A stretch of 64,000 nucleotides of DNA from Psammoneis japonica (Eukaryota). The position numbers and the translations under genes are program-made. The stretch lies in contig QPGO01000301.1 in the NCBI GenBank assembly GCA_008632985.1, positions 1-64,000 of the forward strand. Reading direction: 5' to 3'. The stretch's first letter is position 1. Each line of letters opens with the position of its first letter. Of the stretch, positions 6,538-48,169 are shown one piece after another. The notes under the pieces were generated by a model. The model was not told the DNA's origin, did no database searches, and saw nothing but the letters and a program-made list of their open reading frames with translations.

Positions 6538-7724
6538 TGTCGAATGGGTACGGGATGGGAGTTGGAGATGAAACCAGAGATTGCATTTATGTTCGCTTCC
6601 AGGTTGAAAAGAGAGTCAAGAGTAGCATTAAGAGCGTTGGGCGTTGGAGTGATTGCGACGCGAGAATTTCAAAAATGGGCGTTTCTTTATTTTGTTATCA
6701 TCGATCCCGTCTGACCGTGGCCACCAAAAAATTTTCACCGCGAGAAAAATCTTTTTTTTTTGTGAACGCCACATCCACCATGGCGACATCTTGATCTCAA
6801 GCAGGTCTAGTGGGCCGTTGCGGCCTCTCCATGAACCAACATGGAGCGCACTTAAAGAATGACACTTCGTGCAGAGTTGCCAAGAAGACGGAGGTTGGTG
6901 CTGTTTTCTGTCGACTCAAAACTCCCGGTCACCATGCTTTTGTCCGGAAGCCCGCACACAAAACACGCCAAAGTGGCCCGAGGTTTTGCAAACAATGCAA
7001 TCGATGAAATAGAACAAGGGTGGTCAACGGATCCTTTGAAGACACTGAAGCAGTCTGGGGGTGTTGACTCTTGGTTCTTTGAGAAGACAGACGAGCTTGT
7101 TTTCTTGTTGGAACAATTGCGCCGCGAACAACCAACCAACCGCAGCCTTTGAAGCTGTCGCAGGCAGCTTTTCGGCACGCAGGAACACTGGCATCGGAAA
7201 TGATGATTTTCATTGCTGGTTTTTCATTGATTTATGCATGGCAAGAGGATGTCTCCGATGTGGAGATGTGTTGGCACTCGACAGTGCGTCGACTCACCTT
7301 TGTCAATCTCTCGACATGAGTGGCTTTTCAATGAATTTGTCGTTTTGCTTCTATTTTTACTGTGCCAACTTGCTCCCCCAAGTTAAATCCCACAGAGAGG
7401 ATGTGGCACATGCCAATGCCCACTCGGTGCAGGGGGGGGGGGGGCACAGAGACCACTGTCTCCTGTTGGTCTGCCTGTCTCTGACAGATCTGCACCAAAG
7501 TTTCTCACTCACTCCTGAAATCCATGTTGGAGCTCTGCAAAACACCCATGGCTGGAGAGCTCCTGGCTTCATTGCACCTCCTGTCTTCTGCTTCTTGTTG
7601 TGGCCAGCAGCAATCAAGGAGGTGAGAAAGGAGCAGAGTGCAGGCAACCCAACGGCAGAAACAATGCAGCGCCGGCTGAAGGTCACACCTGCCCACCCCC
7701 CCCCCCCCCCGGTCCACCAAGGCA

Positions 7725-8355
7725 GCCAGTTGATTGCAGCTCAAACCATGTGTTTTGGGTGCTGGTTTGTGGCTTGTTTGCTTGCTCCATTCCATGGGCA
7801 TGCTTCCATGTTGCACCCACCCAGAGCAGGGGCTGCAATCTTGTGATCTTGTTTCTTGTTTGTCCTTGCTGCTGGCAGCCTTTGCACACAACGAGCATCT
7901 TTGTTGTGTCATGTCCAATGCTTCCTCCAAGGGAATGGCATCATTGCTTGGAAACACTCATGAAAATGTCTTGTGCAGGATCTTGAATTTGTTTCATCAT
8001 GTTTGAATCCACCTTGTCACCTGATCTTTGAGTGGTGACAGCGCGGCTGCTTGTGCTCTGCACTCAAATTTCTGTCACCCTGCTCTTGCAATTGTCTCAA
8101 ATGCAGTTTGACCAAAGGCAAGCTGCAACTCTTTTGCCAGGCTTCATGGGGGGGCATTGCAAGACAGTTGCCATGGTGCCTGTTGTGAGCACAATTGGTT
8201 GTGATGGCAGAGCTTTGCCACAAACACATGCACACTCTTGCAGTCAGTGGCATCATGTGTCACAAATCAGTCACTTTGCCTTTTTTTGGCAAAGACAATG
8301 TTTTTGTGCATGGCTTGTGAGTTTCATTGCTTGCTGCATTGGACAATGGCATCTC
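7725..8355 (-). pseudogene. Degenerate partial duplicate of the DTW gene
   Basis: Aligns by eye to ~5925-6540 (tcttgaatttgtttcat-atgtttgaatccaccttgtc; ATWKYAREMEQAN>ATWKHAHGMEQAN; MFPSSDAIPL>MFPSNDAIPL); frameshifted. Confidence 0.88.
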
Positions 8356-8559
8356 TGAACAAGCATGAGATGGGGGGTGGGGAGGGGCAGTGCTGAGTGT
8401 GTTGCACTTTGTTTGGTGTTTGGGCATCTTGCACTTTAGATTGTTGGCAACCCTGTGTTTCATGTGACTGCAGGATCCTCTCACAAACATGCTGTGGTCA
8501 CACATGGCACCTGTCCAGACAGAAATTCACTGTCAATGTTAGACATGGCTTTGACCATT

Positions 8560-9050
8560 TTGGCAAGGACAGCTGGTCTTCTGACGCAAGACTTCACAAT
8601 GTCTCTGCTGCTGCCAGAAACTTTGGGTCATGGGTGTGGCCTTGAAAGCTTTTTTTGTCCTTCTGCTTGGGGCATTGAGCACAGCTCTCATTGCATCAGC
8701 AAGAATCATGTGCATCTCACACCTGTGCTCTCGGCAGTTTGGAGAGCACACACATCTTGGCAACCTTGAGCAGAGCAATTGGTCAGTTCTTGGTGTTGGC
8801 CTCAAAGTTGGACCTGGTGAGCAAATGTTGTTCTTTGTGGCCTTGGAGCACCTTTCCCAGAGCAAGGCATGAGCCTCAATGAGGTCATTCTCACAGGTCT
8901 GAGTCCTCTTGATGTGAACAATGTCACACTCTGTCTTGAGCTCAACATCAGCAAACTGCTTGTTCTCAGCTGTGGCAGTCATTTCCATTGTCATGAGCCT
9001 TCTCTTGATGTGGTTGACAATCAATGGAACAGCAATCTAACAATCAGATG
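8560..9050 (-). mobile_element. Degenerate gag remnant of an LTR retrotransposon
   Basis: EAHALLWERCSKATKNNI...NCREHRCEMHMILADAMRAVLN resembles diatom Copia gag (AYALLWExCxKAMQNKI...NYQExRYEM) once Y>H/C is allowed; recalled similarity, not searched. Confidence 0.55.
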
Positions 9051-16664: not shown

Positions 16665-16942
16665 TGACAGGATTTGAACAGGATTTGGGTGCGCGCGAAA
16701 TGTCGCGCGCTGTTTAGTTTTCCGCGTGCAGTTTTGTGTGCTCTTTAGTTCCGCGCGCACGCGCGCGATGTAGTTTGCTTTCGAGCCACACGGCTCACAA
16801 GAATGATGACAGCAGCCCGATTGCACCGACTTGCACATCTTTTGGCTCCTGTGACGGTCTCTGAGCGGAGACTCATCTGCCATTTAGACAGCAGCAAGGA
16901 GTTGTTGTTTGAATTCTTGCCATTTGCCTTCAATTTCTGTCA
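16665..16942 (+). repeat. 5' LTR (278 bp)
   Basis: Direct repeat of 19580-19857; inverted termini TGACAG/CTGTCA. Confidence 0.92.
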
Positions 16943-17894
16943 GATTGACAGTCTTGCTCATTGTCAACCCATTGAGCAACCGTCATTGTCGTCGTTGATT
17001 TGCCGACGACGCTGTTTCAATTCTGCGTGGACCTCCGCATGTGTTCTGCGTACATCGGCAAGTCTGCGTGCATTCAATGCCAGGCATCGGCAGGAATTTA
17101 ACGTCACCGTCAAGTCTCCTCACCGCTGGACATCTGGATTGATTGTGCCACTTCTTGTCGCTGAAGACACACATTCAACGGTTGCATCCAAGTCCATCCT
17201 TGATCCTCATCCCTTGACACACCCGTTCAACGGTTAACGGTCAAGAACCCTGCATGTTCAAGGATCTTTGTTGCTGAAGACATGCACACATGTGTCTTCA
17301 CGGCCAAGGACTTGAACCCACTCTTTGGACTGCGGCTTTGCTGCCACTCTACAAGCACACCGAGTCCATTGCACCTGAACTGCCCCGGACTGCTGGTGCT
17401 CCACAGTTCCACTGGGTCCACGAGGACGACTGTGAGAGCAAGCAGCCGTGATTGCAGCCTGCGTTGGGGCGAGGGTGTTTTTCCCGCGTTTGTTCGTTCG
17501 TCCACAGCGCCTGACGCCTGCGTCAACTGGCCAGCCTGATCAGGAAATCCAACCAACATAAAATGAGAACGGTTCGGGGGTCTTGTTCACCTCTGGTTGG
17601 CTTGCCTGCAGGGGTTTACAACCCGCTGCTCCGCTCGCAAGCAACCCAAAGCGCCGCTGGCTGCGGGTTCGGACGTGCCGGCACAACTCTACGGACCGGA
17701 CAGGAAGTTTGGCACTCAACAACGAACAGGACAACACAACCCAGCGACTTCTGATTTTAAGACAATTCAAGATTTCAAGTCAAGTCTGTTTCAAGTCAAG
17801 TCTTTTCCAAGCCAAGTTGCGAGTCAAAACTCCGAGTCAAGACCGCACTCTAGATTGGTTCCTGTCTTTTGTTTCTGCTGCACCATCCTCCGTC

Positions 17895-19436
17895 ATGGTT
17901 CTCACGCGACAGCAACAAACCGAAAGCTTCAAATGCATTCTAGGCACTGTGCTCAATCAAGACGATGACAGCCCTCTTCGTTCTGCCCTGTCCATCAATG
18001 GGATTGAATCATGTGAGGAATTGTTCACGTTCTCACCCACCCAAATTGACGCCCTCACTTGCAGAGACGGCACCAATGTAGTTCCTTTGCCACGGACCCA
18101 CAGAAACCTCCTGGCAGCTTTGATCAGCTTCTACTTTGTCAAAGTTTGCAACAGTGATGATGTGACCAATGAACCCCAGTTGCTCACACCCGACGAATTT
18201 TGCAACTACCGCCTTGGTCCGGACTGCTTGACCTCTCCAGCCACTGGCGCAGCACCCTCCGCACCTGTGCCGAGTCCCTTGCCATCCAAACCAGGTGAAC
18301 CCAGCGCCATTTTGACACCAGCCTTGCACTGTGCCGCCACTCAGGTGCCCCCAAGAAGTGGTGTCAGTCGCGCCCCGCATGTCTTGACCAACCCGCCTGC
18401 AAGCAAACTCGGCCCAGTGCAGGATTGCAGCCCTTGCGCAGGCCCGCACTTCGAAACCAGTTGGGGCACTCCACCCATGGCTTCCAAAGCCGCAGCCTTT
18501 GCACCCCGCAAACCACGTGCTGCCGACCTCCACGTGTTGACCGCTGTCACCCTTCACGACCTTCATTTGGGAAGTGATGGAGATGACAACTTGCTTCTCG
18601 TATCTCCTGATGGGGAGCCTCCTTTTCCCATCATTGAATCTGTTCACAACAGTTCAACCGGTTCATCAGATGGGGAGTTCAGGACACCCAAGCAGCTTCG
18701 TTGTTTTTGGATCCTCCAAGCATCGCACCACGAGACGAGGCCTCCTGATTGGATGCCCCAAGTCTCGCACCTTGAGACTGGGCCTCCTGACTGGAAGCCT
18801 CAAGTCTCGTGCCTCGAGACCAGGCCTCCGGATTGGATGCCTCAAGTCTCATGCCTTGAGATCAGGCCTCCTGACTGGATGTCTCAAGTCTCGTGCCTCG
18901 AGACTGGGCCTCCTGGTTGGATGCCTCAAGTCTCGTACCTCAAGACCAGGCCTCCTGACTGGATGCCCCAAGTCTCGTACCTCGAGACCAGGCCTCCGGA
19001 TTGGATCCCTCAAGTCTCGCACCTTGAGACTGGGCCTCCTGACTGGATGCCTCAAGTCTCGTACCTCGAGACCAGGCCTCCGGACTGGATGCCCCAAGTC
19101 TCGTGCCTTGCCTCCAGTTGCCCCAAGTCTCGCACCTCGAGACCAGGCCTCCAGATTGGATGCCTCAAGTCTCGTGCCTCGAGACTGGGCCTCCTGGTTG
19201 GATGCCTCAAGTCTCGTGCCTCGAGACTGGGCCTCCTGACTGGATGCCCCAAGTCTCGTACCTCGAGACCAGGCCTCCGGACTGGATGCCCCAAGTCTCG
19301 TGCCTTGCCTCCAGTTGCCCCAAGTCTCGCACCTCGAGACCAGGCCTCCAGATTGGATGCCTCAAGTCTCGTGCCTCGAGACTGGGCCTCCTGGTTGGAT
19401 GCCTCAAGTGTCACACCTCGAGACTGGGCCTCCTGA
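17895..19436 (+). CDS. gag-like N-terminus, Pro-rich linker and 14-aa repeat ORF
   Basis: MVLTRQQQTESFKCILGTVLNQDDDSPLRSALSINGIES... resembles diatom Copia gag N-termini (recalled); runs into ETRPPDWMPQVSxL repeats. Confidence 0.5.
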   Translation: MVLTRQQQTESFKCILGTVLNQDDDSPLRSALSINGIESCEELFTFSPTQIDALTCRDGTNVVPLPRTHRNLLAALISFYFVKVCNSDDVTNEPQLLTPDEFCNYRLGPDCLTSPATGAAPSAPVPSPLPSKPGEPSAILTPALHCAATQVPPRSGVSRAPHVLTNPPASKLGPVQDCSPCAGPHFETSWGTPPMASKAAAFAPRKPRAADLHVLTAVTLHDLHLGSDGDDNLLLVSPDGEPPFPIIESVHNSSTGSSDGEFRTPKQLRCFWILQASHHETRPPDWMPQVSHLETGPPDWKPQVSCLETRPPDWMPQVSCLEIRPPDWMSQVSCLETGPPGWMPQVSYLKTRPPDWMPQVSYLETRPPDWIPQVSHLETGPPDWMPQVSYLETRPPDWMPQVSCLASSCPKSRTSRPGLQIGCLKSRASRLGLLVGCLKSRASRLGLLTGCPKSRTSRPGLRTGCPKSRALPPVAPSLAPRDQASRLDASSLVPRDWASWLDASSVTPRDWAS

Positions 19437-19545
19437 CTGGATGCCCCAAGTCTTGCATCTCGAGACCAGGCCTCCGGATTGGATGCCTCAAGTCTCGTGC
19501 CTTGAGACTGGGCCTCCTGACTGGATGCCTCAAGTCTCGTGCCTC
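18732..19545 (+). repeat. 42-bp tandem array, 20 units (2 shortened)
   Basis: Unit gagac(ca/tg)ggcctcctgactggatgcctcaagtctcg(ta/tg/ca)cctc. Confidence 0.95.
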
Positions 19546-19579
19546 GATGTTTCTGTGACTCCTCAAGCAAACTGGGGAG

Positions 19580-19857
19580 TGACAGGATTTGATCAGGATT
19601 CAGGTGCGCGCGAAATGTCGCGTGCTGTTTAGTTTGCCGCGCACAGTTTTGTGTGCTCTTTGGTTCTGCGCACACGCGCGCGATGTGGTTTGCTTTCGAG
19701 CCACACGGCTCACAAGAACAACAACAGTGGCCCGATTGTGCCAACTTGCACGTCTTTCGGCTCCTGCAACGGTCTCTGAGCGGAGACTCATCTGCTGTTT
19801 AGACAGCAGCAAGGAGTTGTTGTTTGAATTCTTGCCATTTGCCTTCAATTTCTGTCA
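19580..19857 (+). repeat. 3' LTR (278 bp)
   Basis: Direct repeat of 16665-16942, followed by TSD AGGCC. Confidence 0.92.
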
Positions 19858-20482
19858 AGGCCCTCGACGATTTGACAAGGAAAGACATTGCCTTGCAGTG
19901 ACAGTGGCAAGCTTTGTATGATCTGAGGCCAGGCACAGATCAAATGCGGGGAGGGACATGGACCACGATCCGGGCTGTGGACAAAGAAGCTGTGGCAAGA
20001 GAAAGGGTCCTGCAGTTGGCATTGCAAGTCAAGGCACAATTGGTGGCTGTCAACCAGCCTGACCACAGCACCGACTTTCAGCAGGTGATTGTGGCTGCCA
20101 GGGAACATTTCATGGCACAGGATGACCAAATGGACCGTGCAAGTGGACACTGCATAGAATCCATGAGGAAGCAATTTCTCCAAAACTGCACACATCTGAC
20201 TTTGCCAATTCTGAAAGGATCAAATTCATCATGTTTGCAAGAAAGAGTGAGGAAATCACTGTGAGTGAATGACAGATTGACACACGCATCCTGTTTTAGA
20301 AACAAATCTGACCAGCACTTCCTTCTGTCCTGTGCAGCCCAAACAAACAGGGCCTTTTCTTGCACTTCTGCTGCTCCTGGACATTCTTCATAAACCAAAG
20401 CATTGTCCCCAATTGCTTCGACAGGGACAGTGCATAACTCAGGTGAGTGCTGAGTCTTCTCAGGCATTGAAAGCCAGTTGTT

Positions 20483-23400: not shown

Positions 23401-23487
23401 GTCACTTTGATCTGGGATCAGATCTTGGGTTTGCAACTCTTGGGCAACTGAGTGACACGTTGGTGAGTGTCTCCAATGGCAGGCCAT
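20483..23487 (-). mobile_element. Plavaka-like transposase, frameshifted near 21.37 kb and hypermutated
   Basis: IHLDKT...GEPV...WKPIGCLP...CHTCLRVILEPL...LIIGDAKSGD...SDMMHLFENG...WKLQKLHETLH...NFDAGLGE...CRAHPNCKSKGPWHDFACV follows the Plavaka motif order, with Y>C/H. Confidence 0.72.
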
Positions 23488-26124: not shown

Positions 26125-26155
26125 CATGTGTGTGTGCATGCATGTGTGTGTGTGT

Positions 26156-29985: not shown

Positions 29986-30136
29986 GTCCCCTCGAACTGA
30001 CACTGGCTCCGCTCGGGTCAAATCGACAGACAAATGCAACCTGATGCTGCCCTGTTCCAGGGCAGCAGTCATGTTTTGGGGGTGGGAAAAGCTGCACCTA
30101 CGCGGCAAACCCGTTTGGTTTGTCCCCTTTTGGGAC

Positions 30137-33100: not shown

Positions 33101-34248
33101 TGCGCCAACGTCATGCACAAATGACATGACGGCATCCGGGTGGTCCTGTCTCCTCTTCCAAGGACAGAACCTGTCATGCCCTCTTCTGTTGGTAAATGCG
33201 CTTCCTCCCATCTCGCCATGTGTCGATTTGACCTTTGAAAACATCTGGTCGGAGTAGAATCATCCCTTGACAGCAGGGAACTTAAGCCAAGGGGCTTTCT
33301 TCCAGACTTTCTGTTCGGATGGTGTGCAGACATTACGGACCCCTGCCTGGGTCGTCACTCTGAGGGCATTCTCAGCGGCTGTCAGGCCAATGTGCCACCT
33401 TTTAGAGAGTGTCTTGGGCATGATGGTCGATGCACGACTCGAGGTCGACAGTGCATGCACCCGTTTCCGCTCGGCACAATCCGGGTGGACATCTGGGTCA
33501 CACCGGTCGTGTAGCCCGTCTCCCTCAGTGTCTTTGTGGGAGACATTTGCCTGAGCAACCAGGCGGTGATACAAAGAATCGTCGTCATTGGCATCCATGA
33601 TGACATTCTCGTCATGATGGGATGTTTGGCATGAATGAATGGAAGCGACACACCTGGTCGCATTCATCATCGTCGACCATCCGTCCGACTTTGCTGATCC
33701 TTGGCGCACACTGGCACATGCACGCGCTTCCTCCTTTTGCGCCAGGGCATCAGCAGAAGGCTCCCATCTCAGGGGTGATGCAAGTTCCAGCCGGGGGGAG
33801 GTTCTCCAGATCCTCCTTTGTTGGCTTGTGTGAATCAAAGACTGGGGCAACACCTCGCATTCGCAATGGCACCCTGATCTTTGAGTCAGGAAAAGAAATG
33901 GAGTGCGTGCCAGTCGGATCAAACTGGCGAGGGGCATCGTGGACAATCAGCCCATTCGCTCGCAGTTGGTTGGGGCATGGGAGGGTGTCAGTCATCTTGT
34001 CCCCGAAAAAACACAGCCTCGTGGACCAGCAGCAGGTGTGGTTGTCCATCAGTTGGATCAACCCACACAGTGGCAGCCGTGCAAATGGGAACATTCTCCA
34101 TTGGTGCATGCTCTTCGGAGCAGGGGTGTACCACGACAGTTCTGTCGATGTCAGAGTGCATCACAAAATTGGACCCAACAGCACACGTGTCAGCGTGCGA
34201 GTCCAAATCAGTGGTGGCTTCATCATCTGAATTCCCAGCAGATGACAA
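30137..34248 (-). pseudogene. pol: Copia pol: protease, integrase, RT, RNase H
   Basis: DLDSHADT; SKRWHIG; LVSDGAPE...PWQNPAEASI; RKARFVAGGH, ADVQNACL, RALCGLKSSG, LVYVDD; FVDADHAG, ESSTFGSEF, FCDNEAV, NLADALTK; several frameshifts/stops. Confidence 0.95.
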
Positions 34249-34347
34249 AGAGATGTGTGTGTCCTTTGAGAATCGCCCAGAGAAACAAACAGTGCCAGCA
34301 GGTTTAGCAACATTTGGTTCTGTGCCTTTTGGTGCTGGCGCAACTGT

Positions 34348-35811
34348 TCATTCCTCATTCTGAGGTTTCTCATGTGTGCTGCGTCCAAACTGGGCACCTG
34401 CATTGGCGGCAGGTTTGTCAGGCTCTTCGGAGTCTTTCGGCGCATCAGCAGGTTGAGGAGCAGGCTCGGCAACAGCCACTTTCTTCACAGTGCGAGTTTT
34501 GGTGTCGACCGACTCAGCTTCCGAGGACGCAGCAGCAGCTTTGCGTTTCTTTTCGGCCTTCTTAGCATCGCGGAGCTTTTGGACTTGCTCTCGTTTGGGA
34601 CTGCAAAGAGCTTTCCACTCTTCAACAGGACAATGGCCTGCCCAGATCCTGGGCTTGTCCTTCTTAGGTTGGTGCTTCCCACCAGGGTTGCTGCGCCGAT
34701 TGTTGCGGCGTTGGATGGATGCGATCCCGCTAGTGTCAGCATTGCGGTTCTTGGCATTCTCGACCAGAGTTTTCACACACTGCTGGCATGCCTTGAAGTC
34801 CGCTAGCTTCGTTGGGTCTCCATCCACTGCGCTCTTGCCAGTTTCCAACCTGGGGTCAGAGATGCCCTTCAGAAAGTCAGAGACCTTCTTGGCCTCGGCC
34901 ACCAGTTCATCAAGCTCAGACAAGTCATTGTGAGCCTTTTGATGACACTGGGTGCACTGGTCAAAGGTAAATCGACCCCATCCGGTGTGCTTCGCGGCAG
35001 CAATCTGTGCACAAGCACGGTTCTTTCAGGCAGTGGTGGCAGCCGATCCTTCCGCCTGCCTCTCAAGTGCGAAGAAAGCAGTGCGACCATCGCGGTTGCG
35101 ATTGGAAGGTTTGACAAAAGCCCATCCGGGCCCCCCTGTCACTGACTTCTTCAAGAGATCATACAGACGTTGCCTGTCCTGCACACACTGAGCTCCTGCA
35201 AGGCGGGCAGCAGCAATGGGGCACTCGTCAATGGCAGTGCAGGTGGCAGCCAACATCTCGGTGGTGACCTCTTCATGTTCCCCAGCTGGGTGGATGAGGG
35301 GCACTCCAGCAATGGCACTGCGGTGGTGACGTAGTTTGGTCTCCAGCAGCTCTTGGAAGGCAGGCCAGTCGCATGGGTTCTTGAGCTCCACGGCCATTTT
35401 GGTGGCCAATTCGTCATCTGAGTCAGCGGACTTGAATTGCTCCAGTTCCGTGAGACGTGCCGTCCATGTTCCAATGACGTCGCCAGCAAAGAGAGCAGCG
35501 GTCGGCTCTTGGTTCCGGGCTCTGCGGTGGTCAATCCATGCACGCAGTGCCTTGAGCTTGCGATTCGCCAGGTGTGGGAAGCGGACTTGGGGGTCAGCGG
35601 CGGTGTCCACGCTCTTCACAATGCCCTTGGTCATGTCGGCAATTTCCGTCAAAGGGACCTGTCCAGGTCCTCGATCGCAGCAAAGCCTTGGCGGGCCATG
35701 TGGGTGCGCGTCTGCGCATTGTATCCACAATGCGCAAGACAGGCGGTAAAGGCTGCGGCAGCGGCCATGGTGCATCAGCAGTTGTTCGCGTTTCGACGCG
35801 TGAGCATCCAC
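34348..35811 (-). pseudogene. gag: Copia gag
   Basis: Between the 5' LTR and the protease; KLKALRAWI...GPGWAFV...DGRTAFFAL; KKVSDFLKGISDPRLE. Confidence 0.8.
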
Positions 35812-36314
35812 TTGTGTGAGTGGAGGAAAGTGAGAAAAATGTGTGGTTCTCGTGCCGATTTGGCGGTTTCTACTTAGCGAACCCGCGAGCAGGCGGTGTT
35901 ACCCCCAAGCAACAATGTCCAACAGACATGCATCCACATGTGCAGTGTCCAAACAATTTGACAACGTATTTTGATTTATGAAATGCATGTGATCAAATGA
36001 CAGACCTCAATGCACAAATCATTGTGTCACACACATCACGCATGTTTACATGCCTTAGCCAACATGTTCCATCCACGAGATCAAACATTCCGTCCACTGA
36101 CGTCATGTTTAACGGATCACAGCTCTGGTCTCCAAGAGCATGTCGTTCACATCCATCAACATTGACACACATAAAGGACTCAGCGATTGCGCGAGCAACC
36201 ATGGGACCAACATGGCGCTCACCGCAAAAATCGATCGATCGCAACGACACCGTCGCACCGTTCGCGATGCCTGTTCCAGGCGATGAACATCATGGCGTGT
36301 TGGCTCTGATAAAG

Positions 36315-36498
36315 TGAATAAATGCTACCATGATAGCTGAGAATTGGGTGTGAGACAAGACAGAGTGTTGAACAGCATCAACGGGTTCCAGAATTGTGAG
36401 ATGTCACGCCACTGGGGCCACTAAACAAGCGACAGTGGACCAATCGCCAACAGTGCATAAACTGCCTACATCCGTGACAGCACATCAGCATTTGTTCA
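36315..36498 (-). repeat. Copia 5' LTR
   Basis: Direct repeat of 29802-29985. Confidence 0.95.
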
Positions 36499-38832: not shown

Positions 38833-41800
38833 TTAATCTAGTTGCATGACATTGCCATTTTGTTTGTCAGAATTGTCGCTGTCACTGTCCCCTGCCGCGC
38901 TCTCATCATCCTCCACAGTGTCTTCCATGTCGTCATTCTCTCCCCCCCCCCACTCACCAGTTTCAATGTCTTGTTCCTCCACCTCGTCCAAAGAGTCCTC
39001 AAAATGATCCATTGCCTCCTGCTGTCGGATGGCATCCAGAATTCCTTCATGCTCGTCATCACTCAAATGACGTGGATGAAGAAGTGAAGCCTCATTCCTG
39101 TTGCACGCACTTGGCAGTTCCAGATTGGCTGATGGTTCATTGAGCTCAATGTTGGCAGCTGCAATTTGCTTGAGCAACACTCTTGTCTTACATTCCTCAG
39201 CATCACCGGGAGTGTGCCATCCTCTGGCCCGTGGAACAGGGTTAAGATGCATTCCCTTGCAAACCCATTCACCGGCCTCAACAGTTGTGGGTGGGTCAAA
39301 CTCTTTCCAAACCTCATCCTCCTGTGCTTTGTGGGGGGGTTCATCCCATTGCAGCAGATGGAATCCCTCCTCAGATTCACAAGACAATGTGGCACAGCTG
39401 TTTGGAACAATTTCCTTGGCCATTTCCTCAGTCAGGAAGTCCAGCACAGATTTGTGAACAAACTGCACCTCGTTGGCGTCACTCTTGTCTGTTTGAATCA
39501 CCTGACACACTTGCCAATCATTCAGTCCCTCAAAGATGGGCCACAGTTTGCAAGCTCGGTTGCCACCTGCATGTCGTGGCTGCTCTGTTGGCTTGACATT
39601 TTTAACCCAAGGCCGTTTCAGCTGATCCAGGCAGGCTTCACAAGCACAAGGAATTCTTTGCATCGCAACCCAACCAATGGGGAAAAGAGGTTCAAATTGG
39701 AAATGGCGCAAGGCTCCAACGCCACAATGGCGCGTGTGCACTTGCACCAATCCAATCAACTTGACTTTGATTGAAGAGCCAAGAACTTTGTCAGCTTCCT
39801 GCAGACAATGCACCCTTTGAATTGACTTTTGAAGGGACTCCCTCTTGGCATGTTTTCTGTCACCAACTGTGCCAAAAGCATTCTTGTTCTTTGTGAGCAT
39901 TTTGCAACATTCCTTTGCACAACTGTGTGCGGCTACAACACTGTTGTCATCCATGACCAAAGCTTCAGGTCTAATTTTCCCATCCTTGTCATTGACTCCT
40001 GCAACAGTTGTGGACTGCATTTCTCAATGCATGGGTGATTCAATGCAGGCTCCAATGCCATCAACCTCTCCTTTGCCATGTCCAGGTGCTCCAATGGCAC
40101 GGTCAAACACAATGTTGCATTTGTGCGCAAAGACAGACAACAAGCACAGTGCCAAAGCACATTGGCATTGTTTGGCACAACCATCAGTGTGATCCCAAAT
40201 CACAAGCCACGCCTTGTGCAGGTTGCGGTTTTTTAACCAGGTGACAAACTTTTCCAAGTGAGCATTGGCGGTGGTGGCATCTTGCTTGGAAGAGTCAGAG
40301 AGATGCACATGATGTGTTTTCTGAAGCTCGTTGTCAACCATTGCATCGCAAACTCTTCCTTTGATTGACAATGTTCGGTTGTTGCCATGATGGTCACCCT
40401 GAACTTGGTTGTTGAACTCTGCCTTCTGATGCTCGGAGCAGTCATGAGACGTGAACAGGCTGTTGGGTGTTGACTCAAATGCTTTGCGATGCATTTCCAT
40501 GCAATGATTTTTCCCAAGAATGACCACATGGGGAAGGTGGCAGCGGAGCTTCTCTAAACTTGGAATGCAGTGCTCTTTTGTAAAGACACCGACTGGATTT
40601 CGGAACCTTGTCAACAAGGTCCTGCATTTCACCTTTGCGTCCTTGTTCCCATCTGGATCTGCCTCACAAACAGGACATGCTTCCATGTGCACACCATGCT
40701 TGGAACAACTTTTTACAGTCAAACAACATTGAAACAAAACTTGGGGCGCACTGGGACTTTCATTCTGTTCCAACAATGGAGTTGGGCAGGATGGGCAATG
40801 CTCACATTCACCCAAAACGCATTTCCAATGAGGATGATCCTGACCATTGACATTGCCACAAATGATGGTTGCAGCTGCATCTCGGGCTTTGGGATGAAGG
40901 TGATGGCCGTTGGGGCCAAACGCTTCCTCTTGACAAACACGCATTGTTTCCTCCAATTTGCCAAGGGCACTGTCATGGTTCTCCAAGTTCTCAGGATCCT
41001 CACTTGCAAGCTTCAGCCGATTTTGCTCCACCTCCATCTCTTTTAAAAGCTTCCTTCGAAACCTGTTCAATGCATCTTGTAGAAAATTGGCATTGGTGCA
41101 ATTGCTGCATTGACACATGCTGCATTGACTTGCGTTCATTTTTCGACACTGCTTGGGAATCAAAAATCGAAACATCGTGTCACTGATGAGGGTCTTGCCA
41201 TTGGCATCACGTGCATGTTTGAATCCGCCAACAGACACAGGCTTCAACATGTTGTTGTGCAGCTCACGCATGGACACATTGCGCAACCATTTGTTCACTT
41301 GTTTCTTGTTTCCATCTTCATCTTTAATGAGAATCATGTCTTGTGTGTTGGGAGACTGCACTGTGTCGGGATGATTCGACAACCAGTGCACAAATGCCTT
41401 TCGGATCTCAGGGGAAACTTTGTGAGGACGCCGACGGGGTTGCACTGAAGACCACATGACATCGTCAGTGTTTGAAAGCAATGCCTCTCTGGCAATCTTT
41501 CCCTTCTTCATTTGGCAACAAACAGTGCTCCATCTCAGGCCAAGTGCCTTGGCGCAGTCATGGGAAGACAACTTTTCCTCTTCAGCAGATTTTTCTGGTG
41601 AACTGGAGATTCCAGTTGCAAGAGCACGGACAAACGATTTTTTGTCGTCGGCGAGGTGTTGACCATTGCTGGTGTCATTGGCACGTGCCCACATTTTGCC
41701 CAACTGCTTGGCAATTTGCAAGGCCGCAGCATTTGTTTTCGGCAATGTCAAGCTGCAAGCCTGAAGAAATGGGGCCATTTCGGGAAAATGCAAAGCACAC

Positions 41801-42795
41801 ACAAACGCACAGATTTGTTGTTCTTGAGTGGCGGCGCAAGATGACACTCCTTCTCTCACTTTAACTGCTGCACGATGAAGTGCCTGTTGGGGATCTTTGT
41901 GGGTTGCTTCAACTGCATGAGGATTAAAAGTGGGGCAACCTTGGGAGGCGGTGAGGTTGACAGCAGTTTGGTTGGCCGAAGCGACAGAGGGAGTGACGGC
42001 GGCATTGTCAGAGTTGGGGTTGGAGGGAGTGGCGGCCGCTCCTGCAGTGTGCATTTGGGAGGGGGCTGGCTGTCTTGGCAAGGACGACCCTGGACAATGA
42101 GTGGGGTGTTCCTTGGAGGTGTTCAGGTTGAAAGCAGCCAGGTCGGCGGGAGCAACGGAGGGAGTGACGGCGGCATTGTCAGAGTCAGGGTTGGAGGGAG
42201 TGGCGGCCGCTCCTGCAGTGTGCATTTGGGAGGGGCCTGACTGTCTTGGCAAGGACGACCCTGGACAATGAGTGGGGTGTTCCTTGGAGGTGTTTGGGTT
42301 GAAAGCAGCCAGGTCAGTGGGAGCAACGGAGGGAGTGACGGCGGCATTGTCAGAGTCAGGGTTGGAGGGAGTGGCGGCCGCTCCTGCAGTGTGCATTTGG
42401 GAGGGGCATGGCAGTCTTGGCAAGGATGACACTGGACAATGAATGAGGTGTTCTGTGGAGGGGTTCGGGTTGAAAGCAGCCAGGTCGGTGGGAGCAACGG
42501 AGGGAGTGACGACGGAGGCAGCAGAGCTCGGGTTGTTTGGATTGAAGGGAGTGGCTGCAGCTGCTTCAGCTGCAGCAACGACATGGTCGGAGACCGTGGA
42601 GTGTGTTTCAAGTTCACAACAAGGCTTCTTGTTTTTGCTGTTGCCAGTCCCTGACTTGTGTCGATGGCCAACTCCATTTTGCTTCTTCCTCTTGTTGCCC
42701 ACGATGCACTGGAAATTTGATTGAAAGTGTGCGTCGAGAGGGCGCTGGTGGGTGAGACGGATGGCAAGTCGAGAGGACACATTTTTTTGGCACAC
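38833..42795 (-). pseudogene. Sola2-like DDD transposase, frameshifted at ~40.03 kb
   Basis: CQCSNCTN, CVLGECEHCP, HDCSEH (DYSE-like), HLSDSSKQD, HTDGCAKQC (DGCAxQY), APGHGKGEVDGIG. Confidence 0.78.
41985..42560 (-). repeat. 171-bp (57-aa) coding tandem repeat, ~3.3 copies, in the transposase N-terminus
   Basis: SQMHTAGAAATPSNPDSDNAAVTPSVAPTDLAAFNPN... repeated; anchors at ~42158, 42329 and 42500. Confidence 0.9.
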
Positions 42796-43112: not shown

Positions 43113-43139
43113 GCGGAGCACCTGGAGCTGGAACAGGCC
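43113..43139 (-). repeat. Right TIR
   Basis: gcggagcacctggagctggaacaggcc. Confidence 0.95.
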
Positions 43140-46100
43140 GAATGTCTGTCAATGAATTTTCTGAAGAAAGGACAAAAAACCAGTGACACCCTCTGGCCTG
43201 GTCTCATGTGGAACACCCCACATCACAAATTCTTGGATGTGTGATCCTGTGTGGTGTTTGCTTTGGCATGCTCACAAGTGGATCAAGAGCGCATTTTGTG
43301 CTTTTGAAAGGGGGCACAGTGAATGATCAGTGACGCGTGTTTCACCAGGCAGGAAAGTCACCTCCCTTCACATTTTTGAGAGCTGGATGCTGGAATTTGT
43401 TCTCGCTGATCTGCTTCATCACAAGACAACTTGTCTCTTTCATTGTCCAGAACTTTCTTGTTGCCAAAACATCAGCGGCACATTTCTCTTTTGACCTGGT
43501 CATTCAGTCAGCTGCTCACCACCACAACCTGAAATGGCCTGGTCCAAGGTGCAAGTGCTGCATGGGCAGAAGCAACTGAAGATGAAGGAGCCACAAAATG
43601 CATTGGATGTGCAACTTGCATCAGGCAGGGCCACACACATCATTGTTTCATTTGCAAATCATGTTGTCTGTGAGAGCTGTGGTGCTGGGGAAACAATGTT
43701 TGCTCTCTTCAGAAGCGCTGCAGCACTGGCACCTGGATCATCCAAAGAAGTGCCGGCATTTTTTGGCATCACTTCAACAATTTGAATGTGTGTTGCATTG
43801 CCAAAAAAGCACGCTGTCTTTCAGTCTGGCCGGGCCTTCCTGTGTGGGGCAAGATGATGTTCAAAAGGAACAAACAGATGATGATGGATGGCAAGCAAAA
43901 ATTGGCTCCTCCTTTGTGGTGGGAACCCTGGACACAGCAAAAGGAGGTGTGAAACCTGGGATGGTTTGTGCTGACATGCACACAAGTGTCAACTTTCTGA
44001 GCTTTCCCCTTGACTTGCCACCAACCAAATTTAAAAAAATTGCGTTGTCAACTGACAAGTTTGCTGTCAATTGAAGTGCCGTCAAATGCGTGCACACAGA
44101 GTGGCACACAACACATGAGTGGAGTTCTGTGATTTAATTGTTTGGGCTTTTCTTGCACTGAACAATGTGGAGGCAACATCATGATGATCTGTGCACAAAT
44201 TTCTGCTGTTGTCATGATGAGATGACTGGGGTCTTGAGTTTGGTTGCATTCTGTGTTCTCAAATCATTTTTTGTCCTGACTGTTCTTTCCTTGGTGGATC
44301 ATGCTCTTTGTTTGATGGAGCAATGACATGCAACATGCAAGGCACAATTTGCAACATGCTGGTTTTGTTGCAATTGCTGTGGTTCACACCCACAATGCCG
44401 GTTGTGTTGCACGTGCTGCACAGTTTGCAGAGAGGATTGTGACATGGGCAAGCAGATGCAGGCGGCATTTGTCTGTTGTGTGGTGGCACTGTGGTGGGAA
44501 ATAGAAAGAAGTGCCTTGCAATCAGAGACAAAATTTCAAAAATTAGAACAAATGCTCAGAAGCAGCTTCTTTTCAGTGTTGTGTCATTTGCCAGATCCCA
44601 ACATCTTGTTGCACTGCTCTTTGGTTCCATCAACTAGAGCAGGGCTTTACACCCATCCAGCAGCATGCACAGATTTGAGCTTCTCTTCAGCAGCTGTTGA
44701 AGATGCAGACCATTTCTGGTTTTAACCCCAGAGAGCATGACATGCACCCAGTTTTTAGTGTGGTTCCAGCTGTGCACAAAAACATTGTCTGAACCACTTT
44801 CTTCTTGTGGCTTTTGTCCAGTTGTTGCATTGTTTGTTGCAAAGGGCACTTGGCTTGCTTTCAGGGACAGCGCACGCTTCTCTCTTTCATTTGCAATCAT
44901 GTCTTGCATTGGGTCTTTGATGCAGGCTTCCAATGTGGTTGATTTGAGCTTGAGCAAAAAGGTTGGTGCAGGTCAATGCTTTTGTTGCTGTGGTTGAGCA
45001 CTGCATGATCCACCTGGGATGCTGTCACACCTGGAGTAGATGCCCCACAGTCTAAAACAACTGGTGACAAACTCTTTCACAGTTTCAGCATGACTTTTGC
45101 TGTGGTTGCCTGTGTTTTCTGTTTGCAACGCCACTGGCCACATTGTTGCTGTGCAGTGGCTGTCATCACTCTGCACCCTGTGTGTGTTTGCAATGACACT
45201 GGATCAAGTCTTCCCAGCTGCATGACCACCTGCTCTCTCCACAGTTCTTCCAGAATGTTTTGTGCACAGGAAGAGGTCCCACCATGCATCCAACACTTGA
45301 CAATGTCAATGTGAGTCTGCTCGCTTGCCAGCCCCCCACCAACATTTGTTGTGGCTCCAAGCAAGACCCGTTGTCGCACAGCAAAGGCAGCAGCATGCAA
45401 ATGACAACAGATCATTGTTCCACATTGGTTTGCACTGCACACCACTGAACCATTGTCAACTGCACTCCATTTGGCAGCAGAGCATCAGTGTCATCACCCC
45501 GGTGGCAACATTGACAGATTTGAGGATGAACACAAAGATGCTTGCATTGGATTTGAAGATGACACCAGCTCTAAAACACAAATGCTGCAATTTCATTCAA
45601 GGAAAACTTGTCTGATGAACCCCGTGAGCAGACAAAAAACAACAACGCTGACATCTTTCACCAACAAGCAGACTTGCCATTGCCTTCCTGCTCTCCCTTG
45701 GTGGAAAAAGCTGCTGCATAGATTTGAGATGTGGGGACAATTTGCAATGACATGAACGTGATGCTGGTGGAAAATGCCATTCTTTTCAACACCTTGACCA
45801 AGGTGGGTGCACATGTGCAAAATGCAAAACAGCCATTTGCAGTGCAGTCTGTCCCTTGGAACGTGCTGCAGACTTAAAAGGAACACTCAGAACACACACC
45901 ATTGCACTGCAAAAATGTGTGCTTTGTTTTGAGATTCCGAGATGATTTGTCTCAAGTGTCTGGCACTGCATTGGGTTTGTTTGGAAAGCAGTTGTTTTGC
46001 CATTTGCAATCCCTGCACACCACTCAAAATGGCTGTGGCAAATCCTGTGGCAATTCCTTGTTTTTGAGTGGTCATCCTTCAGACTTGGAGATGTCATCCA

Positions 46101-46949
46101 AGGCGTTTTTGAGGCTGCCCCTGCTTGTCAATGTCAACAGATCATTTCAAATTGGCAAACCATGATGCACAGAGCTCCAAGATGAGATGAGGACATTTGC
46201 ATTGTCATTGAGCAGTGCTTGTTTCACATGTGCAGCCGGCTTTTTGGAAACCATGGAGACATCCCAGCAGGACAACTTTGCAAGTCCACAGCATTGTGCA
46301 GCGTTCGAGTGACATCAGGCATGGTCTCCTGTGCTGTCAGCAGGGTCTCAACTCATTGCATCTTGCATCTTGCTTGCTTGCTCCAAGGGGCCAAAGGAGA
46401 AAGGGGAAGGTGACCAACCATGGGAGACACTCCTGATGCTGACATCCAGACCATTGCCAGTTTCTGTCATTTCTTCATGGAACACAGTGATGACAGAATT
46501 GTCCCAACTTTGGATTTGTCTCATCAACAGGATTCAGGAATCCAAAAAGACAACCACAGGGATGTCATCCTTGCAAATGACAAGGTTGTCAAGCATGAGG
46601 AATGGAAAACCCAAAAGCAGCAGATCAAATCACATTGTTGTCGACATCCATTGTTGCAAGATGAGCTGACACAGGAGGAAGTTTTGGCTCTCCATGTTGC
46701 TGTGCTCCATGTCTCCTTGCAGACTCAAGACTCCACTTCATTTTGCAGCCCACTTTCTGATTTTTGTGCAAATTGACACTGTCCAAAAAGAGTTGAATTT
46801 TGGAATGAGTTTGAGCCATCTGTCAACAATTCTTGTGCTGGCCAAGAGCAAAAAATCATTTCAGTTCTAGATTCCACAATGATGGACAGCACGGGCGATC
46901 TTGGGAGATGCATGGAAGAGAAAGATGAGAAGAAATGCATGGATGACAG

Positions 46950-47330
46950 AGTTTTCCAACCCCTCAAAAAAGCTGGTCTCATTGGCACTGCAACAAGAGG
47001 CTCAAGATTTTGCCAGGGCAACCCCAACTTTTCAGTGACAGTGCCAAACAACAAAACAAAAACAGTTGGAAGGGCCAAGAAGGCAATGCATGGTTTGCTC
47101 TTGTCAATTGCTGCATGGGAAGCAGCAGTGCAGTGCAATGATGTGAGGGCATCTGTTGATGAATTGGATGACGAGAGGTCAAACCACCAGTGCAACGCCC
47201 TCCAGCCTGGTCTCATGCACGGCACTCTGCATTACAAATTTTTGGACACATGGTCCTCAATGGTGTTTGCTGTGGCGTGCTCACAAGTTGATCAAGAACA
47301 CATTTTGTGCTTTTAAAGAGGGGCACCTTG
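46950..47330 (+). repeat. Diverged, uninterrupted paralog of the sequence split by the Sola-like element
   Basis: Matches ~27350-27511 joined to 43144-43315 (tcaagattttgccag; aaggcaatgcatggtttgc; gcctggtctcatg; gctcacaagt-gatcaaga). Confidence 0.85.
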
Positions 47331-48169
47331 ATGGGTGAAAAGAGGAAGTGTGCGCCAGTGATGCACAGTTCATTGGGCAAGAAAGTTGCCTCCATGCGTG
47401 GGCCTTCTTCTGCTTGATTGCACGCAACAATGTGCAACCACACCTTGACAAAAATGGGCTTGCTCAGGAATGGCCTAAAGGAAAACCAGATGAGCTGAAG
47501 AAGAGACCCATTTCTGGGTCCGATCAAGGGATGTCTAAAAGAACACTTTGTTTTAAGTGTGGTGGCTTTGATGTGGGTGAAAGTCAAGACAGTTCAAAAT
47601 CTTGGAAGCTCATGATCTGCAATTGTGGCATGAAGACACCAGTGACAAAATGCTCTGCTGGTTGAAACATCTTCATTTTTGAACACTGTCTCACCCTGGT
47701 GCTGCACTGAGTTGTTTGCATTCCTGTCCATTTTGACTGTCACATGGAGATTGAACATGCAGTCAATTAATTGGCACACACGATGATTTGCAGAAAGCAA
47801 TTGCCAATTTGGCTGGGACCTCCACCTCCAAAAGTTGGACCTGTCACTTCAAAAAGTTTTTTGATGTTGACAGACAGAAAAAGAATTTTTGTGGAAATTT
47901 GAGATCAATGCTGCACATGTCCCACTGCATCGGCATTGGTGTTGCTGATCAATGAAGCAAGAAAAGACACGCAAGTGCAACTTTGGGACACATGACTGAA
48001 AATCATGTCCCCGCTCATTTATTTAATTCGGGAAAAGTAATAAGGCGCTGCCAGACTGGCTGACTGACTCGACGGAATAGACCAGATTGAACATCAACTT
48101 GCCCGCTGCTCCTGACTCGATCGCATATTACGTTTGAGTCTTGAGCAATTTCAATGCCGAAAACTGGAT

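Follow-up and report, generated by a model that had tools for sequence, protein, structure and literature searches.

The window analysed here, a 64-kb stretch of diatom DNA, comprises three blocks (A, B and C) in which the dinucleotide TA is nearly absent, together with the genes that lie beside them (Table 1). About 46 of the 64 kb are transposon-rich DNA in which TA has almost wholly been turned into TG or CA. TA content is expressed as the TA count relative to the expectation from base composition (o/e). It is 0.03-0.08 in the blocks versus 0.42-0.59 in the gene stretches (0.42 at positions 3700-6700, and 0.59 and 0.56 in the other two), in agreement with the contrast drawn by the first-pass annotation of this DNA. 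The closest named relatives of the kinesin are from the diatoms Attheya (51%) and Epithemia (48%).

Table 1. Features of the window, in order of position.
Feature	Position	Strand	Remarks
Block A, TA-depleted	500..3600	.	7 TA vs 187 expected, o/e 0.04; CpG o/e 0.09
Cytochrome P450 gene	3833..5533	+	PF00067, E 5.6e-69; TA-normal, flanks block A
DTW-domain gene	5599..6615	-	PF03942, E 1.1e-31; TA-normal, unmutated copy of duplicate
Transition zone, left of block B	6700..7400	.	0-3 TA and 2-8 CG per 100 bp
Block B, TA-depleted	7400..47990	.	215 TA vs 2531 expected, o/e 0.08
Mutated DTW gene fragment, inside block B	7732..8383	+	aligns to 5932-6568, inside the DTW gene
Unit with 278-nt direct repeats	16665..19857	+	repeats 16665-16942 and 19580-19857
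42-bp tandem array within the preceding unit	18628-19589	.	18 units
Plavaka-type (KDZ) DNA transposase remnant	20300..23520	-	one frameshift near 21415
Copia-type LTR retrotransposon	29795..36498	-	LTRs 29795-29985 and 36308-36498
Copia polyprotein	34302-30140	-	two frameshifts
923-codon open frame without any Tyr	40024..42795	-	holds 171-bp tandem repeat 41929-42560
Older unit, diverged direct repeats	43145..47331	+	repeats 43145-43322 and 47152-47331, 76% identity
Two TA-normal genes bounding block B	48170..51067	-	TA o/e 0.59
Peptidase M64-like gene	48170-49186	-	TA-normal
CBM96 protein gene	49244-51067	-	TA-normal
High-copy TA-normal element adjoining block C	51200..52958	.	TA o/e 0.89
Block C, TA-depleted	52960..55690	.	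6 TA vs 172 expected, o/e 0.03
Kinesin gene	57145..58857	-	PF00225, E 3.4e-59; TA-normal

Block B, 40.6 kb long, is made up of nested transposons and repeats, and its sub-blocks have TA o/e values of 0.05-0.11. TG and CA are in excess in the depleted blocks (o/e 1.6-2.1), CpG is low yet variable across sub-blocks (o/e 0.09-0.61), and o/e of the remaining 12 dinucleotides ranges from 0.81 to 1.32. The GC content of the TA-destroyed DNA is 0.50, and the TA loss is no weaker where CpG o/e is still 0.6. Counts per 100 bp show that the block edges are less than 100 bp wide. TA rises from 0 to 5 at 48000 and from 0 to 3 at 55700, and at 52700-52900 the successive counts are 12, 1 and 0. On its left side block B begins less abruptly: between 6700 and 7400 TA is already low and CpG still normal. 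The depleted span had first been placed at 6780-48000; depletion does hold over that interval (TA o/e 0.09), but its start is better placed near 7400, where depletion becomes full. Depletion runs unbroken over element borders, and the blocks are contiguous and sharp-edged beside expressed genes, with no regard to element outlines. A spliced, RNA-like contig (run X2) extends down to 48027.

All identifiable content of the blocks is repeated or duplicated DNA, namely transposons, tandem arrays and a gene duplicate. The Copia polyprotein shares 57% identity with a homologue of 1428 residues. The transposase remnant matches the Plavaka profile with an E value of 1.5e-5, under the curated cut-off; it has 819 relatives, and four of the best seven exceed the Plavaka cut-off. 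The frame at 40024..42795 (Tyr 0%, Cys 4.8%, His 5.7%) has no Pfam match; it is possibly a DDE transposase remnant, for which links to DUF7869 / DDE_Tnp_ISAZ013 clusters in the Atlas give no more than a lead. LTR, non-LTR and DNA transposons had all been named as targets. The LTR (Copia) and DNA (Plavaka-type) classes are indeed hit, as is a host-gene fragment, but a scan of 59 open reading frames in these blocks, each of 140 codons or more, found no non-LTR element.

The element adjoining block C differs from the blocks in TA content and copy number. The summed word depth of bins 51006 to 53807 is 1027-3959, versus about 53-122 elsewhere. Altogether 977 contigs of the read set X1 match the window, mostly at this element, and 537 of the 977 are at least 95% alike to the window. 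Spliced X2 contigs also lie on the element. One contig connects 51199 directly to 52959, and the element has probably inserted recently and differs in presence between haplotypes.

The direction of the change, TA to TG or CA, was read from LTR and repeat pairs, the tandem array, the gene duplicate and conserved tyrosine codons, and all agree with the direction first proposed. At 29 positions where Tyr is conserved among relatives, the Copia polyprotein has 19 TGY and 7 CAY codons and keeps two, so that Cys or His is present in 26 of the 29. Other residues are maintained (Cys 5/5, His 14/14, Trp 19/21). The seven conserved tyrosines of the Plavaka-type transposase have become three Cys, three His and one Arg, and its conserved His (9/9) and Asp (12/12) are all kept. 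In the DTW fragment, compared with the gene over 632 aligned columns, TA has been lost at all 17 sites (10 to TG, 3 to CA, 4 by transversion) and CG at all 38, of which 33 became TG or CA; TG was retained at 41 of 54 sites and CA at 38 of 47. The working copy retains its TA and the 652-bp copy has lost 17/17, although selection could account for the intact copy.

The repeat pairs date the change. Differences between young repeats are nearly all transitions at Y-R steps: the Copia LTRs differ at 12 such steps and three other sites, and the 278-nt repeats at 16, of which eight are TG/CA doublets, and two other sites. Over the three young pairs (602 columns) there are 15 TG/CA doublets, with about one expected from CpG, as well as eight TA-versus-TG/CA sites, 13 CpG sites and nine other positions. 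These differences imply that about 79% of TA copies have been converted. One unit position of the 42-bp array reads TG in ten units, CA in four and TA in four. Since one repeat copy often has TG where the other has CA, the change was made in the chromosome after insertion. The older unit at 43145..47331 sits in a CpG-poor sub-block. Strand-coordinated runs, the mark left by processive deaminases, were not found (24 runs versus 26.2 +/- 3.4 expected, P = 0.31), and from one site to the next the strand appears to be chosen at random.

The substitution spectrum was obtained from nonsynonymous transition opportunities at 642 conserved codons of the Copia polyprotein. A>G is confined to TpA, with 34 of 43 opportunities used after T versus 2 of 235 after other bases (A 1/54, C 0/70, G 1/111). 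T>C occurred at 20 of 24 sites before A and otherwise at 1 of 194 (before C, 1/68), so that on the sense strand T>C is as complete as A>G and both strands are hit equally. Changes at CpG reached 13 of 125 (C>T 4/51, G>A 9/74), a decay about 15-fold slower than the TpA process, and C>T before A was absent (0/54); the process is thus distinct from RIP and from decay of 5-methylcytosine, as had been argued. Overall, the conserved codons carry 57 A>G or T>C changes versus 16 C>T or G>A and 17 transversions. From the Copia spectrum and the repeat pairs, the TpA process exceeds other substitutions by about 200-fold or more, an indirect ratio. The process strictly requires T at -1. R-T-A-Y appears to be favoured over Y-T-A-R: the residual TA share of Y-R steps is 0.002 for ATAT, 0.005 for ATAC/GTAT, 0.039 for CTAA/TTAG and 0.059 for TTAA, a comparison with gene DNA that is confounded by ancestral composition and by new TA from mutation. 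The TpA specificity in the codon spectra and the post-insertion timing given by the duplicate and the repeat pairs support the region-targeted mutator of chromosomal DNA proposed by the first-pass annotation, and we consider it highly probable that a TpA-targeted mutator acts in situ in these blocks.

Several other explanations were weighed. Modified bases that are miscalled, or elements that are TA-free by nature, are hardly credible sources of the pattern. Heavily modified DNA can give systematic errors in some long-read base callers, and the X1 library type is not on record; X1 is probably from the assembly's own sample and not fully independent of it. Raw noisy reads, however, could not yield the near-exact long matches of X1 contigs in single-copy genes at a word depth of about 60, and the same contigs are TA-free: one, at depth 61, matches 53525-56271 and carries block C, with one different letter and one gap over 2746 nt. 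At the end of block B, the 38 listed differences between X1 and the window represent 34 events, four of them TG/CA doublets, and two haplotype-like versions have TG versus CA at the same sites. Had miscalls been deterministic, the two LTRs would read alike, whereas one has TG where the other has CA. As for intrinsic composition, none of the 197 homologues among the matches listed is Tyr-poor (2.3-5.2% Tyr, versus 0-0.8% in the element frames of the window), and none of 79 related Copia loci has a TA o/e below 0.48 (whole-locus range 0.48-0.98, lowest 1-kb value 0.33), in searches that both favour intact copies. A TA-free coding sequence cannot encode Tyr, and Cys or His exactly where these TA-normal relatives have Tyr therefore counts against it. 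With TA-free contigs and TA-normal relatives, both artefact and TA-free elements are excluded. Together with the confinement of A>G to TpA, these results decide in favour of the proposed mutator all three conditions that the first-pass annotation had set for its refutation. It is likewise very improbable that transposon transcripts underwent ADAR- or ADAT-like RNA editing and were reverse transcribed, so that elements arrived already mutated. The DNA transposase remnant and the host-gene fragment are converted equally, sense-strand T>C in Copia (20/24) matches A>G (34/43) in completeness, depletion is uninterrupted across element borders, and LTRs, tandem units and haplotype-like versions carry TG versus CA at the same sites; this outweighs the facts that the largest element is a retrotransposon and that a preference for U at -1 is described as typical of RNA adenosine deaminases. 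Error-prone patch repair in heterochromatin by a Y-family polymerase had been suggested with polymerase eta in mind, the signature of which is WA>WG and peaks at TA. A WA mutator that converts about 80% of TA should leave many AA>AG changes, but A>G was found at 1/54 in the AA context versus 34/43 in the TA context, and this candidate too is strongly disfavoured.

Two further readings are unlikely but deserve more weight. The target could be thymine, if the T of TpA were modified or oxidised (for example by a TET/JBP-type enzyme to 5-hydroxymethyluracil or 5-formyluracil) and then mispaired with G or were misrepaired, giving T>C. As TA is palindromic, T>C and A>G look alike in our data. In dinoflagellates, TpA and TpC are the preferred sites of 5-hydroxymethyluracil, and 5-formyluracil is able to pair with G. 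Block B also holds a Plavaka/KDZ transposon, a type that in fungi is reported to travel often with TET/JBP genes (PMC12730594). Yet there is no TET/JBP gene among the 59 scanned frames, the scarcity of T>C before C leaves no TpC component, and near-complete conversion would require a very mutagenic lesion; modified thymine is the less probable of these two readings. The other, to which we give only slightly more credence, is that repetition and not chromatin is the trigger, a homology-sensing, RIP-like pathway directing the TpA mutator, perhaps at sexual cycles. The repeated or duplicated nature of all identifiable block content fits such a trigger, and near-single-copy depth today is no argument against a repeat origin, since hypermutated copies diverge fast. 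The process in the alga Bigelowiella natans, discussed below, is moreover episodic. However, B. natans has a hypermutated NCLDV region that is single copy; the blocks are contiguous and end sharply at expressed genes without following element outlines; and the high-copy element at 51200-52958 has a TA o/e of 0.89, although its bins have a summed word depth of 1027-3959, against about 60 in single-copy neighbour bins. The working DTW gene keeps its TA as well, though selection could explain this.

We therefore return to a mutator acting in place on TpA. Sequences already in the chromosome underwent a conversion of TpA to TpG or CpA, in which, on one strand or the other, the A gave way to G (an A:T>G:C transition). 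The change spans contiguous blocks in which a strayed piece of a host gene is hit together with tandem repeats and with transposons of the LTR and the DNA type, and it halts less than 100 bp from neighbouring expressed genes, alongside a slower, variable CpG>TpG/CpA decay. The blocks may represent silent chromatin, in which an enzyme would deaminate adenine in DNA to hypoxanthine, read as G. Such a deaminase may be directed to foreign DNA that has been silenced and serve to defend the genome, the process being the one measured in B. natans mutation-accumulation lines; the link to heterochromatin or genome defence had likewise been put forward as an inference. TA is its own reverse complement, so that A>G on one strand is indistinguishable from T>C on the other, and adenine deamination is favoured as the chemistry by a narrow margin over even. 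The whole statement, in which an in-situ TpA mutator is combined with silent chromatin and a recruited DNA adenine deaminase serving defence, we hold to be probable on balance. As noted before, the window encodes no candidate enzyme: domain scans of the 64 kb found no candidate deaminase gene.

The pattern can be compared with known systems. Like fungal RIP, it strikes transposons and duplicated DNA heavily within the chromosome, by transitions only and at a specific dinucleotide, and it destroys coding capacity and leaves sharp compositional blocks. RIP, however, is C>T at CpA and creates TpA and AT-rich DNA, whereas here TpA is destroyed and CpA and TpG are created; and where RIP mutates all copies of a duplicated sequence, one DTW copy, possibly kept intact by selection, and the high-copy element, perhaps very young, are spared. 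Deamination of 5-methylcytosine gives the same products, TpG and CpA, and CpG loss is present in the same blocks, but its action is restricted to CpG and could not have removed TpA. APOBEC/AID enzymes also impose on invaders a context-specific deamination that disables them by hypermutation. They convert C to U (G>A) in single-stranded DNA, in strand-coordinated runs, in contrast to the window, where A:T is changed on both strands without runs and in elements beyond retroelements too.

The TadA and ADAT2/3 tRNA adenosine deaminases, with the family fold HxE...PCxxC, change A to G via inosine, as do editors derived from TadA. They act on A34, always after U33, and T at -1 therefore fits this family. 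Early TadA-derived adenine base editors had a preference for YAC, similar to the leaning towards T-A-Y in the window. The natural enzymes differ in acting on RNA loops. To our knowledge, deamination of chromosomal adenine on such a scale is not an established activity of any natural enzyme.

TpA-targeted mutation itself is already described, contrary to the impression of a new phenomenon, in a 2026 preprint on one unrelated alga, B. natans. Two viral insertions in B. natans lines gained 231 mutations, of which 230 are A>G or T>C, and the authors place all GC-biased mutations at TpA (Mettrop et al., bioRxiv 10.64898/2026.01.13.699255). The de novo rate, measured directly, is given there as about 6e-7 per site per generation, about 1000-fold over background and episodic between lines, and TpA-poor, CpA- and TpG-rich clusters are reported to be enriched in RT and DDE domains (10.64898/2026.01.13.699255). 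The two cases share changes that are almost exclusively A>G/T>C, occur at TpA alone and yield TpG/CpA, in blocks of foreign DNA beside a normal genome, a lasting loss of TpA with gain of CpA and TpG, enrichment in RT and DDE sequences, and suspicion of an adenosine deaminase. They differ in host, B. natans being a rhizarian alga and the present organism a diatom (a stramenopile), and in targets: those reported for B. natans are giant-virus and virophage insertions with TpA about halved (rho 0.45), whereas here two transposon classes and a gene fragment have been converted almost to saturation (o/e 0.03-0.08 over 46 of 64 kb). The rate reported for B. natans comes from direct measurement, and that of the window is deduced from sequence. 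CpG decay in parallel and a preference in flanking bases are visible in the window. For diatoms, full-text literature searches found no report of TpA hypermutation, in line with the first-pass annotation.

Taken further, diatoms may have a natural enzyme that deaminates chromosomal adenine at T-A(-Y) and is sent, as a heritable defence, to transposons and viral insertions that have been silenced, shared with Bigelowiella and perhaps with much of the stramenopile-alveolate-rhizarian assemblage, a tentative proposal that we rate somewhat below an even chance. If true, this DNA adenine deaminase would be the functional mirror image of fungal RIP and the natural counterpart of laboratory adenine base editors.

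The window, of GC content about 50%, contains three transposon-rich stretches, blocks A, B and C, in which the dinucleotide profiles confirm a TpA to TpG/CpA footprint. Across these 46 kb, 92-97% of the expected TA is missing. TG and CA are raised to 1.6-2.1 times expectation, CpG varies by sub-block with observed/expected (o/e) ratios of 0.09-0.61, and the remaining 12 dinucleotides stay between 0.81 and 1.32. The near absence of TA in transposon domains beside TA-normal genes, reported by the first-pass annotation, is borne out by o/e ratios of 0.03-0.08 in the blocks versus 0.42-0.59 in the gene stretches that separate them. Two edges are abrupt, with TA counts per 100 bp rising from 0 to 5 at 48000 and falling from 12 to 1 and then to 0 at 52700-52900. 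Block B has a more gradual left edge, with low TA and normal CpG in 6700-7400; the start proposed earlier, 6780, falls in this transition zone. Precisely where block A gives way to the P450 frame, the interval 3600-3800 is dense in CpG (12-13 CG per 100 bp) and is possibly a promoter island free of methylation.

TA-depleted blocks and principal elements of the window
Feature	Position	Strand	Details
Block A	500-3600		TA 7 vs 187 expected, o/e 0.04
Block B	7400-47990		TA 215 vs 2531 expected, o/e 0.08
Block C	52960-55690		TA 6 vs 172 expected, o/e 0.03
DTW gene fragment	7732-8383		652 bp; partial copy of the neighbouring DTW gene, in block B
Plavaka-type DNA transposase remnant	23520-20300	-	819 relatives; Pfam cut-off passed by 4 of the top 7
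Copia-type LTR retrotransposon	29795-36498	-	191-nt LTRs, in block B
Copia polyprotein	34302-30140	-	57% identical to a 1428-aa homologue
High-copy element	51200-52958		1.76 kb, TA o/e 0.89

The flanking genes are ordinary and include a P450, a DTW-domain gene, an M64-like peptidase, a CBM96 protein and a kinesin, as identified by a Pfam scan of 32 long frames from the whole window. The best named relatives of the kinesin come from the diatoms Attheya and Epithemia (48-51%) and the database maximum is at most 59% identity, which indicates a diatom-like and poorly sampled lineage. Named relatives of the Copia polyprotein come from Fragilaria and Nitzschia. Upstream of the polyprotein match, two adjacent frames of 290 and 225 codons share one reading frame within the Copia element (34348-35898, minus strand); neither is matched by Pfam, and they may represent a gag-like portion or an insertion nested in the element. 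Block B also has tandem arrays of 42 bp and 171 bp, besides more repeat pairs. For a frame of 923 codons, an Atlas look-up pointed to DUF7869/DDE clusters, a lead only. The Pfam scans of the 32 frames and of 59 frames from the depleted blocks revealed no non-LTR reverse transcriptase, viral hallmark, deaminase or TET/JBP domain. Of the transposon classes named in the first-pass annotation, the LTR (Copia) and DNA (Plavaka-type) elements were therefore recovered and the non-LTR elements were not, among the 59 frames, while its statement that the window encodes no candidate enzyme agrees with the lack of deaminase and TET/JBP domains.

The direction of change was established from three sources. 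A mutated duplicate of the DTW gene lies inside block B, and the working copy of the gene served as reference over 632 aligned columns. All 17 TA of the reference are lost from the fragment (10 to TG, 3 to CA, 4 by transversion), as are all 38 CG (33 to TG or CA), with TG retained at 41 of 54 sites and CA at 38 of 47. Second, we considered 642 Copia codons conserved with at least 70% agreement among at least 10 homologues. The 29 conserved Tyr codons now encode Cys (19), His (7), Tyr (2, one of them the Y of the YVDD motif) and Phe (1), and lost NTA codons are marked by Val>Ala (GCA), Ile>Thr (ACA) and Leu>Pro (CCA). Other residues are largely retained (Cys 5/5, His 14/14, Trp 19/21, Phe 25/26, Gly 48/51). 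Third, the seven conserved Tyr of the Plavaka-type transposase have become three Cys, three His and one Arg, with His (9/9) and Asp (12/12) fully retained. All three sources agree with the direction first proposed, TA to TG or CA.

These changes alter the coding appearance of the blocks. From 7000 to 48000, TAA and TAG are lost in all frames, and TGA is nearly the sole remaining stop codon. The blocks abound in long frames that overlap one another on the two strands; those with 120 codons or more that overlap 7000-30000 number 66. Tyr makes up only 0-0.8% of the long frames, and Cys and His are raised. None of the 59 frames scanned in the depleted blocks met the curated Pfam cut-off, the best E-values being 0.0013-0.043. 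Hypermutated elements lose TAA, TAG and all Tyr codons; they therefore display long false open frames and are missed by Pfam, and gene callers would be misled by such blocks.

The specificity of the process was measured on nonsynonymous transition opportunities in the conserved Copia codons. A>G changes are found at 34 of 43 opportunities after T, against 1/54 after A, 0/70 after C and 1/111 after G, and T>C changes at 20 of 24 before A, against 1/194 in other contexts. At CpG, C>T affects 4/51 and G>A 9/74 sites; outside CpG the two together affect 3/491. Conversion thus reaches about 81% at TpA, 10% at CpG and less than 1% elsewhere, which puts TpA roughly 250-fold above background and 15-fold above CpG in rate. 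The substitution spectrum against relatives, a check suggested with the original claim, therefore confines A>G to TpA (34/43 versus 2/235 elsewhere). Residual TA is rarest in RTAY contexts (ATAT, 0.002 of Y-R steps) and commonest in YTAR contexts (TTAA, 0.059), which suggests a mutator preference for T-A-Y or R-T-A, and hence the more frequent conversion of Tyr to Cys than to His. The tetranucleotide excess of blocks over genes is confounded by CpG-derived TG/CA and gives no clean +1 preference.

Several explanations of the footprint were weighed. A transcription-strand bias could be read from the 19:7 ratio of TG to CA outcomes at Tyr codons, but this ratio is 11:2 with Y before the codon and 8:5 with R, so that it derives at least partly from the flanking base, and per-opportunity rates in Copia are equal on both strands. 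Outcomes form no runs of TG or CA along Copia (24 seen versus 26.2 +/- 3.4 expected, P = 0.31). The WA signature of polymerase eta, one of the candidates put forward initially, is disfavoured and was rejected, AA>AG changes being nearly absent. Fungal RIP was set aside, as it had been in the first-pass annotation, because the present process runs in the reverse direction. Decay of 5-methylcytosine, also judged inadequate there, covers the CpG part only: TA depletion is equal where CpG o/e is 0.6 and where it is 0.1, and the TpA process is faster than CpG decay and not simply its by-product.

An origin in miscalled bases or in the elements' own composition was rejected as well. Short-read chemistry reads known modified bases as the parent base. 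Three read runs from one sample were available, and contigs built from run X1, whose independence is partial since it is probably the assembly's own sample, have a word depth of about 60 and match the single-copy genes near-perfectly (1 difference in 2128 nt). An X1 contig over 53525-56271, including most of block C, carries the same TA-free sequence with 1 difference in 2746 nt; noisy long reads could not yield contigs of such match. Diversity between blocks is very uneven, that single letter comparing with about 1% over 44001-47100. There, the sole X1 contigs are about 1% off the window at a depth slightly under the single-copy level, and we take them for a second haplotype that was retained when the contigs were built. 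The 38 listed differences (137 more exist) represent 34 events: 12 CpG-related, 4 TG/CA doublets, 1 TG/TA, 8 other transitions and 9 transversions. Regarding composition, relatives are TA-normal: all 197 listed homologues contain 2.3-5.2% Tyr versus 0-0.8% in the element frames of the window, and the 79 related metagenome loci all fall within a TA o/e range of 0.48-0.98. No hypermutated relative was seen among the listed homologues (77 longer ones and 120 of similar length) or the 79 loci, retained from 411 confirmed relatives, although searches of both kinds favour intact copies and are weak evidence on the spread of the process.

Young repeat pairs (16665/19580, the Copia LTRs and 28181/28309; 602 columns) indicate when the mutations arose. 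Their differences comprise 15 TG/CA doublets, 8 TA-versus-TG/CA sites, 13 CpG sites and only 9 other positions. CpG decay predicts about 1 such doublet, so the 15 observed represent ancestral TA converted independently in each copy after duplication. Ancestral TA sites in the pairs would number about 43, with conversion in 79% of the copies and a background divergence per lineage of about 0.75%. Likewise, at one site of the 42-bp array, 10 units have TG, 4 have CA and 4 have TA. Sequences never copied from RNA are converted equally, which excludes RNA editing before integration; together with the independent conversion of copies, this indicates a chromosomal, post-insertion process.

The blocks run unbroken across different elements and end beside expressed genes. 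Run X2 reads as RNA-like, with skips of 78-99 nt bounded by CT..AC ends; its contigs were placed on gene stretches only, which makes their absence from the depleted blocks uninformative on expression there. One spliced RNA-like X2 contig extends down to 48027, and TA depletion starts at about 48000. The bins in which the high-copy element lies have a summed X1 word depth of 1027-3959 versus about 60 in neighbouring single-copy bins. It looks recently inserted, since it is TA-normal, has spliced RNA-like paralogue contigs in X2 (skips of 90 and 99 nt, CT..AC ends), and is bridged by a contig joining 51199 directly to 52959, as though another copy or haplotype lacked it. Pfam gives no match to the element's frame of 230 codons (51309-52001, minus strand). 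Most of the 977 X1 contigs on the window fall in the high-depth stretch, and 537 of the 977 share 95% identity or more with the window; many unmutated copies of this element therefore exist. These copies favour targeting of a silent state over simple repeat sensing, although a sexual-cycle trigger may play a part; we infer that the silent state is the targeting signal. The first 850 bp of block C (52960-53807) are TA-free yet fall in bins with a summed depth of 1027-1969. This sequence therefore exists in numerous copies of 90% similarity or more, which were either amplified after mutation or mutated alike.

The same signature was described in mutation-accumulation lines of Bigelowiella natans in a 2026 preprint (bioRxiv 10.64898/2026.01.13.699255). 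In the portion available, A>G or T>C accounts for 230 of the 231 mutations found in two viral insertions, and the authors place all those GC-biased mutations on TpA, at about 6e-7 per site per generation and in only some lines. TpA-poor, CpA+TpG-rich clusters are enriched in RT and DDE domains, and ADAT2/3 is put forward as candidate enzyme. With the Phaeodactylum rate of 4.77e-10 as stand-in, our repeat pairs put the rate, as a rough estimate, in the 1e-7 range per TpA and generation, an order shared with B. natans. Mutation accumulation in Phaeodactylum is itself biased towards GC>AT, and the available part of that study (PMC6604790) reports no hotspot at TpA. Diatoms do not occur in the available preprint text, and the freely accessible literature searched yielded no report of TpA hypermutation in diatoms. 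The first-pass annotation, which knew of no diatom description, holds in this respect, with B. natans (2026) as a precedent elsewhere. In contrast to B. natans, the window represents a different eukaryotic lineage, with transposons rather than viral insertions affected, close to saturation.

The hypermutation reading is thus supported, and the finding joins a kind of hypermutation that was described only very recently and whose mechanism is unsolved. Adenine deamination seems, by a modest preference, the probable chemistry. This is only the second organism with the footprint, from a different major lineage and with a far stronger signal than the first, a sign that eukaryotes more widely may defend themselves against invading DNA by TpA-targeted hypermutation, and that the process is not one alga's quirk. 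A comparison of deaminase-fold and repair genes across species that do and do not carry the footprint should make the enzyme findable. Should the agent prove to be a DNA adenine deaminase, no earlier natural example is known to act on chromosomes, and the finding would be relevant to mutation biology and base-editing technology.
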